The notes below the pieces were generated by a model, which searched no databases, was not told the origin of the DNA, and saw only the letters and a program-made list of their open reading frames with translations. Both the position numbers and the translations under genes were made by a program. DNA of 62,962 nucleotides, the filler included, from Collodictyon triciliatum (taxonomy: Eukaryota), in assembly GCA_043381765.1 (NCBI GenBank). It is 10 parts of 10 records of this genome, joined end to end, with 100 filler letters (N's around TTAATTAATTAA, not from the genome) between each part and the next. Parts side by side here need not be neighbours in the genome. Positions count along the whole stretch, not along the records: positions 60,978 to 62,962 come from JBHJMP010004503.1; 9 more parts are not named here. The stretch is one strand, 5' to 3'. Of the stretch, positions 40,438 to 62,962 are shown in pieces (position 1 is the stretch's first letter; each line of letters opens with the position of its first letter).

Positions 40438-41142
40438 CTGGTCGATAAGGAGGAAGAGACAGAACAAAAATTAAAATGGTGCTTATTTTTTTCTTTCCAA
40501 ACGCTTTTTACTATAAAAAAAAAAAAAGAGAAGAGAATAGAAGAGAATAGAAGAGAATAGANNNNNNNNNNNNNNNNNNNNNNNNNNNNNNNNNNNNNNN
40601 NNNNNTTAATTAATTAANNNNNNNNNNNNNNNNNNNNNNNNNNNNNNNNNNNNNNNNNNNNAGTTTTTAGTTTTTAGTTTTTAGTTTTTAGTTTTTAGTT
40701 TTTAGTTTTTAGTTTTTAGTTTTTAGTTTTTAGTTTTTAGTTTTTAGTTTTTAGTTTTTTTTTATACCGCGTTTTGTGAAGAATCATGGCAGGCATCGTT
40801 GCTCCCTTGCAAATCGAATTTCCAGAAGTAGGAGATGAAACCACCGCGCGTTTGGTTGTGGCGGGCGACGTACTCGGTGATATTTGCGGGCGGCTTTCAG
40901 GTTCAGAGATCAGCCAAACCCTCGTAAGAACATCGCACACACAGAGAAATTAAAAGAGAGTATGACTCGTGCCTGGAGAAGAACATAAGAAGAAAAGTCA
41001 GAGAGCGTTAATGAAGACAACTTGGATCAGTGTGGAACACCCAAGCGCTTTCGGCCAAGATCATCCCTGTGGCCGCACTTGTTTGCGTTCTCAGTCTGAT
41101 CATTTTCTGTTGCAACTATGTATTCCCTTTAGGCTTTTCATC

Positions 41143-44100
41143 ATGAATGAAGATGATCCTGACCAAGGTGCTTACCCGACACCCCCAGACGAGGAAAATG
41201 AGGACGAAGAAGAATATGAGGAAGGAGAGGAAAACGAGGGCGAAGAGGAAAATGAGGACGAAGAAGAATACGAGGAAGAAGAGGAAAATGAGGACGAAGA
41301 AGAAAATGAGGAAAATGAGGAAGAAGAGGAAAATGAGGGCGAAGAAGAAAATGAGGGCGAAGAGGAAAACGAGGGCGAAGAAGAATATGGGGAAGAGGGA
41401 AATGGGGACAATGACGAGGATGCGCATGACGAAGAAGACGCTGTTGCAGATCATTACCATCAGGAAGAAGCTTGGAAAGAGGATAATGCCGAAGAAAACG
41501 AACCCCTGTATGTTGGCGATCAACAGGAAATGAGCAAGAACGGTAACCCTCAGGCAGACAGTGTCGATTTGTATTCTCTGGACCAATTAGATGACAATAT
41601 AAGTGAAACTTCCTCTAACTGCGACTCACTCATCAACGAAAGCGATATCCCACTTTATCGTATCACAATCAGGTTATGTGAAAGGGGCTCGATCCCACGC
41701 TTCAGTGAACATGATGTTCTTCAACTGTTTCCCAAGTGCCTTCGAGTTACAAAAATACTTCCCATCCCAGATAGAAGCATTCATATCATCTTTGACTCTG
41801 AAGAATTGGCAAAGGAGGCATATAATGGATTCATCGACCCAGGGAAGGCGTCTGCCAAATGCTCCACTTGTATCGACGACCAGAGGTTGGCTGTACTTCC
41901 ACCCATGCTAGTTGGAAGATATCCACCTGGTTACCATAGGGGCACAACTAGACACCGAGGTAATCCCAGAGGAAACATGGCCAGCTGGAATGCATCTGAA
42001 CCCGTCCTAACACCACCAGGTCAAGTGACCAATCCCACCGGAGCTTCACAGCCAAACTACCCAGGCACCAGGGGCACAGCTAGAAATCGAGGAAATCACA
42101 GACAAAACATGGCCAGCCGGAATGCATCTGAACCCATCCTAGCGATACCAGATCAGTTGACCAATCCCACCGGAGCTTCACAGCCAAACTACCCAGGCAC
42201 CAGGGGCACAGCCAGACACCGAGGTAATCCCGGAGGAAACATGGTCAGCCGAAATGCATCTGAACCCGCCCTAACACCACCAAATCAGTTGACCAATCCC
42301 ACCGGAGCTTCACAGCCAAACTATCCAGGCAGCAGGGGCACAGCCAGACATCGAGGAAACTCCGGAGGAAACATGGTCAGCCGAAATACATCTGAACCCG
42401 CCCTAACACCACCAAATCAGTTGACCAATCCCACCGGAGCTTCGCAGCCAAACTACTCAGGCACTAGGGGCACAGCCAGTCATCGAGGAAACCACAGACA
42501 AAACATGGTCAGCCGAAATGCATCTGAACCCGCCCTAACACCACCAGACCAGTTGGCCAATCCCACCGGGGCTTCACAGCCAAACTATCCAGGCAGCAGG
42601 GGCACAGCCAGACATCGAGGAAACTCCGGAGGAAACATGGTCAGCCGAAATGCATCTGAACCCGCCCTAACACCACCAGGTCAAGTGACCAATCCCACAG
42701 GAGGTCCACAAAATAGCAATATCGCCCCTGAATCACAGGCAAGGAAATACATAACCCCGAAAACCATCTCGAAAGGGCCGAATCCAACAGCTCTTGCTAA
42801 GCTTTCTATAGCATCATCTGAGCCTTCATTAAACATCACTGGACTTCCACTATCGCCACAAGCAACAAATCCCACAGGAATCCCACTACTGAACTCCCCA
42901 GGCATCGTTCCACAAGCAGGGAATCATGTAGTTAGGACAGATCGTAGCGTCAGCAGAAATACTTCTAAGTCTACTTTAGAAACACAACAAACCAAAAATG
43001 ATGTAGACCCTCAAAACACTCAGAAGATGGCGACTAAAGCAAAACCGAAAAGCAAATCCCCTCCCCCAGGCACTGTTACAATTGTTGGCATGGTAGAGAG
43101 AGACTTTGAAGTCGGATGGGCTGATGCTGTTCAGTCAGTGGTGAACCATATAGAAATGAGCACACAAATTAAAATTTTAAATCATGAAGATTCTGAACAA
43201 TTAGGCGCATTTTCTATCAAGCTAAGGCTGGTCGATTCTAAACTACTTCTTGAGAAATTTGGAATCCAATCACCAATCATCTTTGACCATGTTACTGCTT
43301 ATCTAACTGCGGATATGATTCATGTGGCTATGAAACCGAGTGATTTTTTTTTCACGCCCATGCTAGAGAAGTACTATATTCTGAAGACGAATGCCTTGGC
43401 GGAGCAAGTGAAAAGAGAGTGTTTTATAGCCATGACAAGAGAACCACATCCCATTAAGATTAACTTTAAAGGAACGTTTGAAAAAATTAAGCTGTTCATT
43501 AACAGTGAGCATTACAAAAAATTCTACGCCAAGACGAAGGATTATCCAAAATCTGTTAACCCCTTCCTGAAGAGGATTATTCTTTCGAAATACAATGTGG
43601 ACCATTCCGCTAATAAACTAATTGGATTTTCTGAAGAGGATATAACCGCTGCAGAGAGTCATTTGAATAAGACGGAAAAAAAAGTGGTGCCGGTCATAGA
43701 AGGCAATCACGAGGTCAAGCAAGAGCTCTCTGATAACCAACTCAAATGGATCGAAGTGAACTTGAAATTCCTTAGAACAAACTATGGTTTATTCATCACC
43801 GTCACAAGAAAGTCTAAAGAACTTTGCATCAGAGGTAAAAAAGAAAAAATTGAAATGTTTGCCAGAGCTTATAACGGACTTGCTTGCCAAAAAGTGGATA
43901 TTTTCTTTGACACCTCCAGAGTAAATTCCGATAGCCTAGATGTCTCTAATACTGAAACAATACAACCAGTCCAATTACCAACCGATGTAGAATTCGAACA
44001 AAAGAAAAAATACGTGCATTACGTCATACAAAATATAAGGAAAATCATACCTTTGGCACACTCTGTAACCAGGGCAGCAGAAGACCGTATTCAATTCTCT

Positions 44101-47053
44101 GTTGAAATCATTTGTGTAGCCGAATCGATGAGGAATGCTATAGCCACGCTGCAAAGCAAAACCATGAGGCTATTCACACTATCACCAGTTTCATGTGCAA
44201 GCGATGAATTTTACTTCCCACCTTCGTTCACTAAACTTGGTCACAAAGTCAGATATGAAAAGGAAAAGAAGAAGCTTGTAGTGCTTTCGCACGGATCCCT
44301 TCTTTCCCGTGCAGCCACAATACATAAGCAAGGCATCGATAAATACATTTTTAAATCTGAATTTCTCGTGAAAAAGGGCCAGAAGCTACTTCGTTCATCT
44401 TGTGCACCAAATAGCGTGGGGTATTCTTTTGTTAAAGGAAAAGTTGCTACCAGTGGGCTCAGATTCTACATTCCTGTGAGTAAAGATAGAGCCTGGTCCA
44501 TTATAGAAAATGATATATTTTCCAGGGTTATGCATCAGAAACATGTTTTAGAAGGAGATTGGAGTAATCGACATTACCTTGTTTTGGATAAATGCCTTCA
44601 GTTGGCCAACTGTGTGTATCGAATCCCAGTAATTAATGAAGGAGGCATTCTAAAGTTGTTCCCAGTAGAATATTGCTGCTCTGACGAAGATCATTCTGAC
44701 ATGATAAAGTTTATAGAGAGTATGTGCCCCAAAGACACTTACTTTGACCTAGATTTTCAAAAAACTGACTTATTTGAAAAGTCGGAGGTAAATGGGTCTA
44801 AAGTCCTCCATATCCATGACAGAGCTCTCGTTACTATTCAAGAGAAGCCACAAACTGTTTTGGAGAGTCACATTGTAACTTTGATCATCAGCACCATCCA
44901 CCCTGAAGTTGATGCTGAAGTTAGGTCGATAATCGAGAGCAAGATTCATGTCACTGAAAGTGGTCGCTTTGAAGAAAAATCTTTTGATTTGGAAGGAACT
45001 TCTCTATGCCGTCTTTTTTTTTATGACCAAGACACCAAAGATAAGTTATCTGAAGCTTGTGGACAAAACATAAGGGTAGAATACGTTAAAGCAGTCTCTT
45101 TTCCAGAATACATGGTCTTAAAGATAAGAGGAAGAGAGAAAGACCTAGCTGCCAAAACGGACATTGTGAAAGAGTTCATTGAGTCGACCAAAAAATTGAT
45201 AACGAATTACACGATAGAACTGCAACCCCATGAAGCAGGATGCCTGAGTACCGCAAAGTGGCTTACGGAGAGGTCCAAGCTTAATGAGATTGATATTGAG
45301 CTCATTGAGGAGAAGTCAAACAAACCCCGGGCGTCGATTCAAGGACAGCGATTCCTTCGTGTCGTTAAATTCCCAAACAATTTTACTTTTCAGATTAGAC
45401 ACGGAAACATAGCGAACGACTCTGATATTTCTGGTATTGTTTTGTCATGCGATAATTTCCTACAGCAAGGAGGAGAAATAGCCCGAAAAATACATCTCAC
45501 GTTCGGAAATAAATACAAAGAAGCATGCTGTAAGTACATCGCGGAAAATATTCGCGTGTCAACTCTATGTTCAGTGTCGTTTAATGTTGTGCAGAGCCCC
45601 TTGAGATACGTGATTAATTCGGTGGCACCCATCTTTCAAGAGAAAAAATCTGAGGAGGAAGCATTAAAATCTTTGAAAAAGATGTTTTGTAATATCCTTA
45701 ACGAGGCGGCGAGACTCGGTATCAAGTCAATCGCCTTCCCAGCCCTGGGCAGCAGAGTCTATGGAAACCCAAGTAAACTTGTTGTGCAGGCCCTCATAGA
45801 GGCCTTAAACGCTGAAGTAGTTAAAAAGGAAACTCCTGGAATTATGATTGTTCGGTTTGTTGATACAGATATATCAGTAATCCATGAAATGACTTCCGCA
45901 GTAGACAAAGAGTTTGAAGCATATTCAATTGAGAAATGGTACTCTAAACAGAACGACCTCTACTTTCCGTTCCACCCGACCTATTTGTGGTCTTGGAAGG
46001 CTGATGATGGAGAATTAAAGCCTTACGATGAAGATTCAAACTGGATTATTGATCAGGCGTTCAGAGCAAACGCGCCGAGTGTTGTCATATATATTCCATT
46101 GTCTGAATCCATCCATAGCCGAAGATATGTCGTCAAATTTAAGACAATGAGGCAATATAATTGTGTTTCAACCCATAGCAGGGAAATCAAAAAAGAAATG
46201 TATACCCAAACAACATCATCACTACTTGAGGGCGCCGACGAAACAAATACGGTTGACGTTGAATCTAGCCATGACATGGGCTCTGAGAGAGGGGATGATG
46301 ATTATGGAGATGGAGACTATGGTGGTGGTGGTGGCGGTGGTGGTGGTGATGATGATGATATGAGTGACGAAGAGGACCTTACTTCTGGAAATTCTCAGAG
46401 ATTGTGGCAGAATAAATCGTCCTTTCAACTCAAAGTATCCCATGTACGGGATCGTTTGGACAGTGCAGTGCAGAGAATTAAAACCCTGCTCGAGAAATCC
46501 ATCAGCACATTGGATACTACGTTGTGGATCAGTCAGGACGATGTCAATCTCGAGTACCTAGTCAGATCGATTGAAATCAACCATTTAGCATCTCTCTCCA
46601 TCATACCCGATAATCACACAAAAAATGCAAAAATACGGATAATGGGTGCTCCCGAGAGAATCATATATGCCAACCAGGAGTTGATAGACGGCGCACATAA
46701 GATTTATGACACAAACTACACAGCTACAGCCAGGATTCCCGAATCCTGGACGAGTCCTTCCCCGCAAAGCAAATTGGTTAATCTGAGCGTTGATTCCCGG
46801 GAGTGGAAGGAAATCGAGCAGAAAGTACGAGAGTCTCTTAACCATGTCACTATTGAAGCCATTCAAAGGGTCCAAAATGAGCTCATGTGGGAGGCCCACG
46901 CAAGCCAAAAGCAGAAATTGGCAAAGATACTCGGCCACAACCCAGCCATTACCCGTTTATTCCACGGTACAAAAAGTCGCAACCCACAACTGATTTATGA
47001 TGATCCTGAATGCGTTGGATTCAAGATGAGATTCTGTCAACCAGGCGCATGGG
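41143..47053 (+). CDS. Giant exon of a macro-WWE-PARP protein (PARP14/PARP9-like architecture), 3' partial
   Basis: Within the 2030-aa ORF (likely ATG 41143): acidic tract, RRM-like segment, 44-aa repeats, KH-like region, macro-like domain (~45382-45915, KSIAFPALGS), WWE (~45982-46197) and PARP catalytic start IQRVQNELMW...LFHGT...GF...GAWG. GT donor at 47054. Confidence 0.85.
41938..42729 (+). repeat. Coding tandem repeat, 132-bp (44-aa) unit, about 6 copies
   Basis: RGTARHRGN.GGNMVSRNASEPALTPP.QLTNPTGASQPNYPG(T/S) repeated six times with near-identical DNA. Confidence 0.95.
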
Positions 47054-47434
47054 GTATTTGAATGCACAAAGGCTCTTCTTTTTCTTTTTCTTTTTCTTTT
47101 CTTTTTCTTTTCTTTTTCTTTTTCTTTTCTTTTTCTTTTTCTTTTTCTTTTTCTTTTTCTTTTTCTTTTCTCTTCTTTTCTCCTTTTTTTCTCCTTTTTT
47201 TTCTCCTTTTCTCTTCTTTTCTCTTCTTTTCTCTTCTTTTCTCTTCTTTTCTCTTCTTTTCTCTTCTTTTCTCTTCTTTTCTCTTCTTTTCTCTTCTTTT
47301 CTCTTCTTTTCTCTTCTCCCAGACATGAAGCTAANNNNNNNNNNNNNNNNNNNNNNNNNNNNNNNNNNNNNNNNNNNNTTAATTAATTAANNNNNNNNNN
47401 NNNNNNNNNNNNNNNNNNNNNNNNNNNNNNNNNN

Positions 47435-54437: not shown

Positions 54438-56256
54438 ATGGCATCATCGCAAAGTACGTCGGGTCTAGAATTAATAGCTCGGGAATTACAAAATATATGG
54501 ATAAATGAGCCAGTCGAACTACTCACAGAGCTTGGGAAGGGAAGTTTCGGGCGAGTTTATTCTACAACGTACAAAGGATATGATGCGGCCGTAAAGATTC
54601 AAAGTGTGAAAGGGACAAAGGAGCTTGGCTTCAGCGAAGTTATCGACTCTCTTATTCTCGAAGCAAAATATATGCATGATTGCCGAGAGCATGAGAACAT
54701 TGTCAAGTTATTTGGTGTTTATCGAGAAGATGAGGATTTCTTCATGGTAATGGAAAATGCAGGTACTACGTTGAAAATTTTTTTGGAGAAAGAAACTTCG
54801 CTGCTAGAAGTATCAAAAATTGTATCATACTCAAGACAGATATGTAACGGCATCATGTTCATGCACTCAAAGAATCTCTTCCATGAGGAGTTAACAGCCG
54901 ATAATATCATGGTTGCCGGAGAAAAAGTGAAAATCGGAGACTTTGGAATCGTGAGCCTTCGCGGTCCTGAAAAAGTTGGTTCTAACCTACCAACACGATT
55001 CGGAGAAGCTAAACAAGGCGGTACATCAAACTGGCAAGCTCCAGAAATTCATGATGTTGTCTGCAAACCATATTACGAAGATGGTATTATGTATGGTGAT
55101 GATGAAATCAATATCGGACATCGTGGAGAGCCGAGTAATATTTATGCTATCGGGTTACTTGTTTGGTACATGTTCTCTCGAACGGAGCCGTTCAAGAATG
55201 AAGCACAACCTGAGAGCTTTACAATCAGAGGCTTGAGGCCGGAAATACCAACGAGCATCCCAAGGGAGTTGCAACATTTGATAACATCATGTTGGAGGCA
55301 AAACTACAAGCTACGTCCAACTTTGCGACAGATATCCAAATACCTGGATGACCTGTTATCTAGTGGGCTGAGACTGTCTCAAGAATATATCATCGAGATA
55401 CTTCCGATCACGTATTCTCCTCTGATAGACATGTACAAGGGAGAGTTTGTAGAATGGATTCGAGACTGTGGATTTCAAAAACTAGGTGAGAAGTTTGCTG
55501 ATGAGGTTTGGGTGACAGTGAGTGAAATCCAACACAATTTGAGCGAGGAGGAAATGATAGCATCTTATCACATAAGTATGTCTGATGTTTCTGCATTTAC
55601 TAAGCTATCAGAACAGAATGTAGAGGAAGGAGGTTTGGGTGTTTCCAAAGTGAAAGTTAGGGAACTGAGGCATTTCCAGTTGGCGAGCTATTTACAAAAG
55701 AGGAATGACGAATTATCCCGTGTGCTGCTGAGAAAGGTGAAGGCCTTGAAGCTTACTGGTGACGCAATATCGAGACTTCATCAACCTAACGAGCGAGATA
55801 CTTATTCTATCAGCGAGGAAAATATCAAGCTGGCAGCTCAGATGATATCTGATTATCAAAAAAGTAACTGGACAACAAACCTGCAAGACTCCGAGATACG
55901 GGTAGAAGAGAAAGCCCCAACATACTTTGTTCAGAAACTTGTCCCGAAGGATGAAGTAAGGACTAAATAACATATAGAAAAAAATGTATTTCCTTCATGA
56001 TTCTTGTGGTATTGAGGCTTTTAAGGTAAGCTTTACTTTTTGACACTAGGATTTGATTGAATTACAAGACTTTGTTCCTCCCAACACTGTTACGACCAGG
56101 GATATTCCAGATATGCATCAGGAAGAATCAGTCAATCAAAATCCCATCACCCCACGACAAGAATCTCCGAAACCTATCGCGATTGAGGTGAATGAGCCAA
56201 CCTCAGCAAAGCCCCACAGAACCTCGTGCTCAGAAAGGGGGTGTCTTTTGATTTAA
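54438..56256 (+). CDS. TKL-like protein kinase (putative pseudokinase) with SAM-like region and C-terminal CaaX; two exons (54438-55955, 56050-56256)
   Basis: GKGSFG, AAVK, DFG and APE are present but HRD reads HEE. Phase-0 intron GTAAGG(55956)...CTAG(56049) joins in frame to an exon ending GCLLI*. Confidence 0.82.
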
Positions 56257-60722: not shown

Positions 60723-60977
60723 TTTTTTTTTTTTTTTTATTTTTTTTTTTATTTTTTGTTTTATTTTTTGTTTTATTTTTTGTTTTATTTTTTGTTTTAT
60801 TTTTTGTTTTATTTTTTTGTTTTATTTTTTTGTTTTATTTTTTTGTTTTATTTTTTTGTTTTATTTTTTTGTTTTATNNNNNNNNNNNNNNNNNNNNNNN
60901 NNNNNNNNNNNNNNNNNNNNNTTAATTAATTAANNNNNNNNNNNNNNNNNNNNNNNNNNNNNNNNNNNNNNNNNNNN

Positions 60978-61113
60978 AGCAATGGCCCATCAGCTTTGGT
61001 AGTGCTAATCAACTGTAGTAATTTGGCTTTCAGCTAATCGCGTTTTTTAGTGGCCAAGCCAGCAGCAGGAACAATATTCCCCAAACTGCGTTAAGCCCCA
61101 GAACGTTAGCGGC
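60978..61113 (+). repeat. attC-like repeat, copy 1 (5' truncated by contig start)
   Basis: Differs from copy 2 by 3 substitutions over about 130 nt. Ends ...AAGCCCCAGAAC-GTTAGCGGC. Confidence 0.88.
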
Positions 61114-61122
61114 AACCTTAAT

Positions 61123-62046
61123 ATGACAAACCCTCCTAGAAACCACCACTACGTGCCTCAATGTTATTTGAATTCTTTTACAAACTCCCAAAAGAAATTT
61201 TGGAAGATGCGTATTGATAATAATAGGATTTCAGAAACTATGCCTGTTAAGGTCTGCTATGAAATTGATTCAAATCGATTTAGAAACAAGCAATTACTAG
61301 AAATAAATAATCTTGACGATGAATATTTCATCGAAAAACACTCCTTTAAAATTCAGGAAAATAATTTTAGTAAAGCTCTTCATGAATTAATCAAGTTCAA
61401 AAAAGAGCAAATAATAATTGATAAAACAAGGCACCAAATTTTTCTTGAAACACTGGTTACTATAAAGAGAAGGAATCCCGATTCAAGAAACAAAATAATT
61501 CAAGTTTTTAAGGAAAGCTATCAAACTCAGGAGGGCATTCAAAAATTTTTAGAATTTTTTTTAGAAGAATCGGGCAATCAAAAGATTACTCCAGAGATCA
61601 AAATTAATATAAAGAATTTTCTTGCAAACGAGTCACAGGATCCCAATCGTCTTCATGATATGTATCTTAGTGCTTACTTGAACAAGGTCGATTATACAAC
61701 GATTGCCAATATAACCCGTGATTTCTATCATTTAAAGCAATATATACTCCATACTCCTATAGGTCAACAGTTTATAACTTCAGACAATCCCGGTTTTACA
61801 TTAGCGGGCAATACAATCATTAGTCTTGGCGGTTTAGGAGGTCGATTTGAATTTTATTTTCCGCTTTCGCCAACAACCTGTCTTTATCTGAAATCAACAG
61901 ATATAGAGCAAACCGATGCTATCGAAAAAATAATATATCCAGTGATGATTAACAAGTCTGACGTAACCCAAATCAATAAAGCAACAAAATCAATAAGCAT
62001 GAAAAATGTTTTTGCTTATAATAAGGAAACACTAGAAAAATTGTAG
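61123..62046 (+). CDS. DUF4238-like bacterial protein (gene cassette 1)
   Basis: Intronless 307 aa. N-terminal HHYVPQCYL, FITSDNPG and YFPLSPTTCL match the DUF4238 pattern as recalled; no HMM run. Confidence 0.8.
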   Translation: MTNPPRNHHYVPQCYLNSFTNSQKKFWKMRIDNNRISETMPVKVCYEIDSNRFRNKQLLEINNLDDEYFIEKHSFKIQENNFSKALHELIKFKKEQIIIDKTRHQIFLETLVTIKRRNPDSRNKIIQVFKESYQTQEGIQKFLEFFLEESGNQKITPEIKINIKNFLANESQDPNRLHDMYLSAYLNKVDYTTIANITRDFYHLKQYILHTPIGQQFITSDNPGFTLAGNTIISLGGLGGRFEFYFPLSPTTCLYLKSTDIEQTDAIEKIIYPVMINKSDVTQINKATKSISMKNVFAYNKETLEKL

Positions 62047-62049
62047 GCA

Positions 62050-62221
62050 GCCGCTAACAATAGGCTTTACGCAATTTGGGTTTCAGTAATGGCCAATCAG
62101 CTTTGGTAGTGCTAATCAACTGTAGTAATTTGGCTTTCAGCTAATCGCGTTTTTTAGTGGCCAAGCCGGCAGCAGGAACAATATTCCCCAAACTGCGTTA
62201 AGCCCCAGAACGTTGTGCGCA
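62050..62221 (+). repeat. attC-like repeat, complete copy 2 (~167 bp from CGCTAAC to GTTGTGC)
   Basis: AAC (62056-58) and GTT (62212-14) cores. Inverted arms GGCTTTACGCAATTTGGG (62063-80) and CCCAAACTGCGTTAAGCC (62187-204), 16/18 paired. Confidence 0.9.
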
Positions 62222-62226
62222 ATTTT

Positions 62227-62844
62227 ATGAACCCTGTACGTTTAGAAGATACTATAAAATTTTTGAAGGATAATATCGATCCACTTGAAGATATTGCATA
62301 TGGTCCTGGCTATAGAGCTTCAGTATTTTTATTAGATGGTACATATTTGCCATGCGTCATTTTCCGAAATTCTAAAACAATAATTGACTTAGCTATAAAT
62401 CGGTTTAAAAAAGAGCAGACAGCCAACAATTTATTTCAAAGGTTTTCAAATCGTAAATATAGAGAAGCTGTAAAGACATTTGTTGCTAGTGGTAATAGTA
62501 TAAAACTTAGTGATATTGGAAAGGTCCAAAAAAGTCGTTTTGCTTTTCCAATAAGTATCCACAATCAAATAAAGGGAGAAACTGCAATGAGTTGGACTGC
62601 ATTTGTTGCAAAATTCAAAGATGGAAGATTCCTTAGTTTTGGTACAACTTGGAATTGGGAATTTTTTGATTTGCCTGAAAATTATCTTGTAGAGGATATT
62701 ATTGAAATAATAAATCATAGCTATATAACAAAAACAGGCGAGATTATTCGACACGGATCTATAGATAGGGCACTTCAATGGGATAAATTAGAAACAATTC
62801 ATAGACCACGTCAATTTTTTGATTGTTATTTAGATCATTTGTAA
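62227..62844 (+). CDS. Hypothetical bacterial protein (gene cassette 2), 205 aa from ATG 62227
   Basis: Intronless ORF filling the interval between two repeats. The ORF-track GTG start at 62215 lies within the repeat core. Confidence 0.8.
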   Translation: MNPVRLEDTIKFLKDNIDPLEDIAYGPGYRASVFLLDGTYLPCVIFRNSKTIIDLAINRFKKEQTANNLFQRFSNRKYREAVKTFVASGNSIKLSDIGKVQKSRFAFPISIHNQIKGETAMSWTAFVAKFKDGRFLSFGTTWNWEFFDLPENYLVEDIIEIINHSYITKTGEIIRHGSIDRALQWDKLETIHRPRQFFDCYLDHL

Positions 62845-62869
62845 CATGACTTAAATGAAAATATAATAC

Positions 62870-62962
62870 TGCGCACAACAATAGGCTTTACGCAATTTGG
62901 GTTTTAGCAATGGCCCATCAGCTTTGGTAGTGCTAATCAACTGTAGTAATTTGGCTTTCAGC
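62870..62962 (+). repeat. attC-like repeat, copy 3 (3' truncated by window end)
   Basis: TGCGCACAAC-AATAGGCTTTACGCAATTTGGG... matches the copy 2 left arm and the copy 1 body. Confidence 0.88.

Follow-up and report, generated by a model that had tools for sequence, protein, structure and literature searches.

A probable bacterial gene-cassette array in the Collodictyon triciliatum assembly and its relation to Bacteroidota arrays linked to a short, integrase-related recombinase

The window analyzed here is a stretch of 62,962 nucleotides from the genome assembly of the eukaryote Collodictyon triciliatum (GCA_043381765.1), in which nine N/TTAATTAATTAA linkers, one about every 6,775 bp, separate ten contigs of some 6.7 kb. 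Its last piece (60979-62962, 1,984 bases, record JBHJMP010004503.1), which is cut by the window end, has a bacterial look: it carries two close-packed, co-oriented open reading frames (ORFs) with a 159-bp repeat between them, and it is this contig and its gene cassettes that we describe. The pieces before position 60,879 show few long ORFs, many microsatellites, and poly-T, and include a protein kinase gene (54438-55970) and a 2,030-amino-acid Macro/WWE protein in a single open frame (40969-47061). Since the earlier pieces thus carry eukaryote-type genes and microsatellites, the cassette contig is a bacterial passenger in a eukaryotic assembly. It is probably a fragment of a bacterial integron-like gene-cassette array, with freshwater Bacteroidota as the probable source; an Rfam search of the contig gave no family match.

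The contig holds three copies of the repeat, all features lying on the plus strand. It opens with the 3' part of one copy (60979-61107; 94% identity to the full copy over 140 nt), which is cut by the contig start and ends in the invariant GTT of the recombination site at 61105-61107. Cassette 1, delimited by its own complementary ends, runs from 61105 to 62058; it starts with GTT+AGCGGC and ends with GCCGCT+AAC, the AAC opening the next site, and its gene (61123-62046, ATG 15 nt past the GTT) encodes a 307-amino-acid protein of the DUF4238 family (Pfam PF14022, E 3.6e-37). There follows the only whole copy (62056-62214), an attC-like AAC...GTT repeat of 159 bp whose two arms, as judged from repeat alignment, folding, and arm models, pair around a centre of about 100 nt. 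Cassette 2 (62212-62879) starts with GTT+GTGCGCA and ends with TGCGCAC+AAC. Its gene, ORF2 (62227-62844, 205 amino acids, ATG 12 nt past the GTT), has no Pfam family and belongs to a conserved family of about 206 amino acids whose members with a source name are from Bacteroidota. The 5' part of the third copy (62877-62962; 97% identity to the full copy over 86 nt) is cut by the window end. As the contig starts at 60979 and is cut at 62962, it shows no more than two complete cassettes. All three copies share an identical core of 44 nt, and conservation among them ends at AAC and GTT, the bases outside differing from copy to copy.

A first-pass annotation had claimed that the two ends of each cassette are complementary to each other and not to the adjacent repeat half, and all four strings on which it relied were found where it had put them: GTTAGCGGC at 61105-61113 with GCCGCTAAC at 62050-62058 for cassette 1, and GTTGTGCGCA at 62212-62221 with TGCGCACAAC at 62870-62879 for cassette 2. 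As AAC and GTT are invariant in the repeat, only 6 and 7 of these 9 and 10 bp, respectively, are informative. Beyond GTT/AAC the ends of cassette 1 form six perfect pairs and those of cassette 2 seven (6/6 for both over the six positions scored below), and the inverted repeats extend to 14 nt at 86% and to 17 nt at 88%, respectively. The flanks of the whole middle repeat, described earlier as mismatched, indeed pair with each other at only 2/6 positions. The middle repeat is chimeric in the array, its 5' flank coming from cassette 1 and its 3' flank from cassette 2; its bottom strand folds at -30.1 kcal/mol with the own flanks of cassette 1 and at -23.3 kcal/mol as arranged in the array. The two arms of the window's site are of equal length, with two mismatches.

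The same repeat was found on one metagenome contig (L001), which contains a complete cassette with a PemK/MazF-family toxin gene and a small upstream ORF of no Pfam family, as well as the start of a ParD/ParE cassette. The ends of the complete cassette are paired at 6/6 positions, and at 13/14 over a longer stretch. With the ORF2 family as bait, 55 loci were recovered from reference genomes, and repeat arrays of the window's architecture lay around the ORF2 homologue in L037 (Chryseobacterium), in L002, L007, and L026 (Flavobacterium), and in others. Sites were then called with profile models of the two 28-nt arms, which were required to pair up within 60 to 230 nt. Nine of the 57 sources yielded such sites, 34 complete ones in total, each of them 99 to 189 bp long, in direct orientation, and on the gene strand. 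The ORF2 homologue directly abuts a called site at 7 of the 55 loci, in seven different genomes, and, according to the ORF and repeat lists, the genes neighboring the homologues differ between loci; the proposal that the units are mobile, rather than genes that happen to lie beside a repeat, gains support from this. Outside L001, blastn of the whole site against 56 loci gave arm-level matches only. Exact-word scans returned no match to the central 22-mer of the repeat in reference genomes and none to the 5'-arm 19-mer or to the 3'-arm 22-mer in viral contigs. A family-agnostic hairpin detector (AAC...GTT plus duplex energy) was dropped, having recovered 20 of 28 known sites at its loosest threshold; the site reads AAC...GTT on both strands, so that the opposite strand is no control for it.

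The pairing of own ends was then scored, over the six bases outside GTT/AAC, in 28 cassettes bounded by consecutive called sites in seven sources. Nineteen cassettes paired at 6/6 positions, five at 5/6, two at 4/6, and two at 2/6 (mean 5.39), so the rule held at five or more positions in 24 of the 28. By comparison, the two flanks of the same repeat paired at a mean of 3.06/6 (n = 34), and the 756 combinations of starts with ends not their own at a mean of 2.75/6, seven of them being perfect; none of 100,000 permutations matched the observed pairing total. With the family's own repertoire of flanks taken as the null in this way, the seven perfect combinations among 756 argue that the two perfect cassettes of the window are not due to chance.

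The pairing was also followed position by position in 21 of these cassettes, seven intervals being left out: six longer than 1,700 bp (among them three in L007 that score 5/6) and one in L037 with a known missed site. Positions 1 to 6 pair in 20 or 21 of the 21 cassettes despite varying bases and position 7 in 16, while position 8 is in most of them an A opposite a C and is paired in a single cassette; beyond it, positions 9, 10, 11, and 12 pair in 19, 17, 15, and 13 cassettes, respectively. Both window cassettes fit this pattern. Nineteen of 20 sites were more stable when folded with their own flanks than as arranged in the array. Compensating variation of the flank bases would be predicted if selection acted on a site that folds and pairs with itself in the free cassette. 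The pairing rule and this variation together support the view, put forward in the first-pass annotation, that the paired ends are the footprint of cassette excision and shuffling at the GTT core. The crossover itself can be located no more closely than to the invariant GTT, inside it or at its borders, and no single bond can be assigned.

Words of the stretch were found in 20 public sequencing runs from 16 studies, with a share of 0.63 in one run, 0.25 in three runs of the same study, and small shares elsewhere. Contigs of four runs were aligned to the stretch; the small word shares of the 16 other runs are not taken as evidence of habitat. Summed contig depth in the four runs was 94 to 346 on several repeat bins against 0 to 10.7 in the cassette interiors. 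Of the 34 loose contig ends, 18 were listed, and most of these lie no more than a few bases from the AAC or GTT edge; the contigs concerned have the repeat in common and then run into unrelated sequence. Two contigs link the 5' arm to the 3' part of the repeat through 12 to 13 other letters (62903>61044 and 62908>61050) and represent shorter variants of the site. The existence of variants with the same arms and only 12 to 13 nt between them implies that the long centre is dispensable for the site, and in the window's site it may be a lineage-specific insertion. This centre of about 100 nt (within 62056-62214) is nearly invariant between the window copies.

The consensus fold of 23 sites computed with RNAalifold has 16 arm pairs, nine of them with compensatory double changes. 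Every interruption in it is symmetric (1x1), so that no base is bulged in the predicted consensus; behind AAC two to three bases stay unpaired, in front of GTT six. Of the features by which integron cassettes are recognized, the family has ORFs that follow one another in the same direction, with short leaders and, behind each, an imperfect inverted repeat bounded by AAC and GTT, and the complementarity of a cassette's first bases to its own last bases rather than to its neighbor's. Paired outer (R) and inner (L) boxes with covariation are likewise present in the modeled fold. The predicted consensus, in turn, has none of the extrahelical bases that the inner box carries on its 5' arm in the canonical sites of Bacteroidota. 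The attC structure of cassettes is said to have been defined by Hall, Stokes, and colleagues, and the repeats of the Vibrio cholerae array are reportedly of about 120 bp. Sedentary chromosomal integrons, of which that array is an example, resemble the arrays described here in their co-oriented genes with very short leaders, in imperfect palindromes with AAC/GTT ends, in crossover at GTT with both cassette ends derived from one site, in long, near-identical, lineage-specific sites within one array, and in toxin-antitoxin cassettes. They differ in that our family's consensus lacks the inner-stem bulge and has an A-opposite-C mismatch 8 bp outside GTT/AAC, and in that the array of the window's relatives lies downstream of, and co-oriented with, a recombinase without the extra domain of integron integrases (IntI).

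This recombinase was found next to the arrays in relatives of the window contig. At L007 (on a complete chromosome), in L026, and on the contig L065, the array starts downstream of a co-oriented recombinase. The complete chromosome G001 has its best match to the integron-integrase model 214 bp upstream of the first cassette and on the same strand, a layout shared by L026 and L065. The enzyme, here termed the short recombinase, misses all the curated cut-offs: it scores 189 of 220 bits for the XerA type and 184 of 265 for TIGR02249, and its scores for XerC (167) and XerD (163) are also below the cut-off. Public sources label it XerD or a generic tyrosine recombinase. Its closest solved structure turned out to be VchIntIA (2a3v, E 1.2e-31), but in place of the 71 residues 178-248 of VchIntIA it has 29; this segment of VchIntIA we take to be the IntI-specific extra domain with the I2 helix. 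That domain, of about 42 residues, reads flipped-out bases, which the predicted hairpins of the window's family lack. The short recombinase keeps the KGxKxR and HxLRH motifs of the catalytic region, and the spacing between them is 64 to 70 residues in all 37 measurable short recombinases, compared with 72 in Xer paralogues and 106 in all 18 measurable canonical IntI of Bacteroidota. Compared with canonical IntI (TIGR02249, 2a3v), the enzyme is therefore alike in its best solved relative, its motifs, and, as described below, its place in a joint tree group, and unlike in its score, the length of the domain segment, and the motif spacing.

Of 301 sampled Bacteroidota genomes, 111 have a homologue of this recombinase with an E-value of 1e-40 or better. 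Around the 40 best of them, all 18 called sites lay downstream of the gene and on its strand, with none in 279,730 upstream bases and none on the opposite strand. In a tree that left out one 25-amino-acid fragment, the array-linked recombinases clustered, in a clade of 16 made up of nine with arrays, six on cut contigs, and one without a called site. At 17 of the 40 loci the contig stops less than 2.5 kb past the gene on its downstream side, at several of them within 100 to 450 bp. Contig ends so close downstream are expected if a repeat array that breaks short-read assemblies follows, and arrays are probably undercounted in draft genomes. Loci near a contig end include L106, L113, L119, L121, L128, L130, L132, and L140.

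The end flank of the first called site predicts an exact GTT+6 word, and in 12 of 13 recombinase-linked arrays this word was found between the recombinase gene and that site; in L007 the predicted footprint of the first cassette was not found in this interval. In 7 of the 13, the footprint lies 96 to 420 nt past the gene and follows a motif that these loci share and that does not belong to a site arm. From their sequence and position, footprint and motif together are a candidate primary insertion site, attI-like in kind; the window has no such element. Many homologues of the short recombinase (P0138, P0158, and others) are 360 to 440 amino acids long and have an N-terminal extension of about 110 to 135 residues, which the L007 enzyme (285 amino acids) lacks. 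When the extensions of two long homologues and the ORF that lies upstream of the recombinase in L007 were searched against Pfam, no family was found, and this ORF shows no resemblance to the extension.

Taken together, the genes of the window are, with good probability, true mobile cassettes of an integron-like array, which belongs to a Bacteroidota site family probably worked by a short, IntI-related recombinase without the extra domain. Each unit is made up of a gene that has hardly any leader and, behind it, a site of about 160 bp whose ends fold back on each other. In the mechanism we propose, the site would be whole in a free circular cassette, and its outermost stem would comprise AAC/GTT and about 7 cassette-specific bp, the conserved A-opposite-C mismatch, and three to four further pairs. 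A tyrosine recombinase, presumably the short one, would cut and exchange strands at the invariant GTT, at a bond still to be fixed and with a folded single strand as the likely substrate, and the array may still be active. After insertion, the final bases of a cassette's own site would stand at its start and the remainder of that site at its end. Strand exchange at the GTT of a whole site would in this way leave a cassette's two ends matching each other and not the neighboring repeat half. The first-pass annotation had given as known that such ends result from integration of circular cassettes with a self-complementary site; this is the established integron model, and the interpretation is right but not new. 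The own-end footprint is a long-known property of integron cassettes, and, being textbook for integrons, it by itself only identifies the contig as a cassette array.

Several observations weigh against this reading. The window contains no recombinase gene, so that its link to the short recombinase is through homology of the site arms only, and within the family the site of the window is itself divergent (arm E-values 2 and 0.002). The middle site's whole-site folds are no more stable than those of shuffled sequences (z-scores 0.68 and -0.50), the arm stem alone being supported. A called site was found at only 10 of the 40 recombinase loci, all 10 among the 22 where 4 kb or more of DNA is available downstream, and L107, a relative from the main clade, has 8 kb downstream and no called site. 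Four of the 28 cassettes, intervals of 1,077 to 5,950 bp, pair at 4/6 positions or fewer; two of these intervals contain sites seen by eye that the caller missed, and we attribute the low pairing of all four to missed sites, which we saw in those two only. Two of the 34 sites (L001 676-834 and L037 8562-8685) have mutually matching flanks (6/6), so that the rule does not discriminate there. The adjacency of cassettes 1 and 2 comes from assembly through the 159-bp repeat, and among the metagenome contigs listed none spans the whole stretch, which leaves the cassette order without independent confirmation. The aligned metagenome contigs gave no junction of a circle or an excision, but assembled contigs can show neither circles nor activity. 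Six contig joints considered as deletions were rejected as such: the intervening sequence is not known, and the simplest account is that other cassettes lie between the two repeats. As to the two sites with matching flanks, they could be array-terminal or ancestral, unsplit sites, or neighboring cassettes there could share a flank type.

[quoted passage not shown] Canonical enzymes are common in the phylum, full-length IntI over the TIGR02249 cut-off being present in 90 of the 301 sampled genomes, and at least 3 of 20 intI loci examined (L150-L169) have clear classical attC arrays upstream of intI; nothing in the window, which has no recombinase, directly excludes such an enzyme, and a passage of PMC2095811 has integron integrases acting on varied attC sites. 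However, within 8 kb of these 20 canonical intI genes, in 226,905 bases on both strands, no site of the window's family was called, as against 18 beside short recombinases. None of the 10 sampled genomes with a called window-type array has a canonical IntI match, compared with 93 of 301 overall, and the G001 chromosome has none over the cut-off. Furthermore, the sites of the classical arrays carry extra bases on the 5' arm, as in textbook attC, and the consensus of the window's family does not. We therefore consider this alternative unlikely. As an IntegronFinder category, CALIN does resemble the window contig taken alone, with three sites and no integrase in 1,984 bases; it differs in that the contig continues past the window and that the relatives carry a recombinase which an IntI-specific criterion would not count. 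The frequency of canonical IntI in the sampled Bacteroidota is itself far above what the survey passages cited below suggest.

The repeats could also be static intergenic elements, such as repetitive extragenic palindromes or bacterial interspersed mosaic elements (REP/BIME), elements like miniature inverted-repeat transposable elements (MITEs), or terminators, with the genes between them not mobile. The near identity of the three window copies, like that of dispersed repeats, and the unexceptional stability of the whole-site folds are what such elements would show, but static repeats offer no cause for complementarity across a gene, compensated in 20 to 21 of 21 cassettes. Nor do they account for the ORF2 family beside such sites in seven genomes, for the many different sequences that adjoin the exact edges of the repeat in independent metagenomes, or for sites found only downstream of one type of recombinase and on its strand, and we regard this explanation as very improbable. 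Modules of the Xer/dif type, exchanged as double-stranded DNA at XerC/XerD sites like the pdif modules of Acinetobacter plasmids, are hardly credible either, although the linked recombinase is Xer-like in size and motif spacing and bears the name XerD in public sources. The XerC/XerD sites that delimit pdif modules are 28 bp long and alternate in orientation, whereas the sites here are 99 to 189 bp long and all in direct orientation. The selected pairing joins site ends with more than 100 nt between them, for which a 28-bp core of double-stranded DNA would have no need, and the recombinase groups in the tree with canonical IntI, apart from the Xer paralogues of the same genomes.

In that quick tree, short recombinases and canonical IntI fall together with the two Xer paralogues outside, and canonical IntI form one clade inside an unresolved set of short lineages; the tree allows both that the short enzymes never had the domain and that they lost it. 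Judged by their sequences, the sites and the linked recombinase appear to lack two features by which integrons are defined; for the window contig, the connection with the enzyme is indirect. What we propose beyond the cassette nature of the array, and to which we give an even chance, is that Bacteroidota carry a second, largely unrecognized integron-like lineage to which the window's array belongs, with I2-less relatives of IntI, an insertion site downstream of the recombinase gene, co-oriented cassettes, and hairpin sites that have no flipped-out bases and yet keep the GTT crossover and the pairing of own ends. Such a lineage would be either the missing stage before I2 or proof that cassette recombination at hairpins needs no I2.

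The passages of the literature available to us set the frame for this proposal. According to PMC7790495 (eLife), the I2 segment is necessary for cassette capture, being what permits folded single-stranded sites to recombine, and no evolutionary intermediates are known; the same passages describe the single-stranded hairpin of the CTX-phi phage as recombined by XerC alone, without I2. CTX-phi is thus alike in that an I2-less, Xer-type enzyme acts on a folded single-stranded site with one strand exchange, and unlike in that a phage hijacks the host's dif machinery at a single site, with no dedicated recombinase and cassette array. The extra domain is given as the defining feature of IntI in a passage of the paper on integrons in Archaea. 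In the parts of the IntegronFinder 2.0 paper (PMC9024848) that deal with the phylum, surveys find almost no integrons in core Bacteroidetes, earlier finds being In0 elements only, plus one complete integron in Salinibacter ruber. A full-text literature search found no paper describing the present variant, and a review and an Antarctic resistome paper were silent about it; the IntegronFinder supplementary tables, with possible Bacteroidota CALINs, were outside this search. The significance of the arrays lies in the same cassette logic, including the own-end footprint, being tied to I2-less relatives of IntI. If the enzymology holds, they would offer a natural test of the role of I2, and freshwater and soil bacteria would hold a large store of cassettes that has not yet been searched.

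Two minor observations concern the cassette genes of the window in public metagenomes. Run X7 contains a 258-nt piece of ORF2 only. Record 13 of run X2, which corresponds to window positions 61272-62080, carries the DUF4238 cassette gene with 18 differences and departs from the window upstream of 61272, inside the gene, being a variant or a recombinant of cassette 1.

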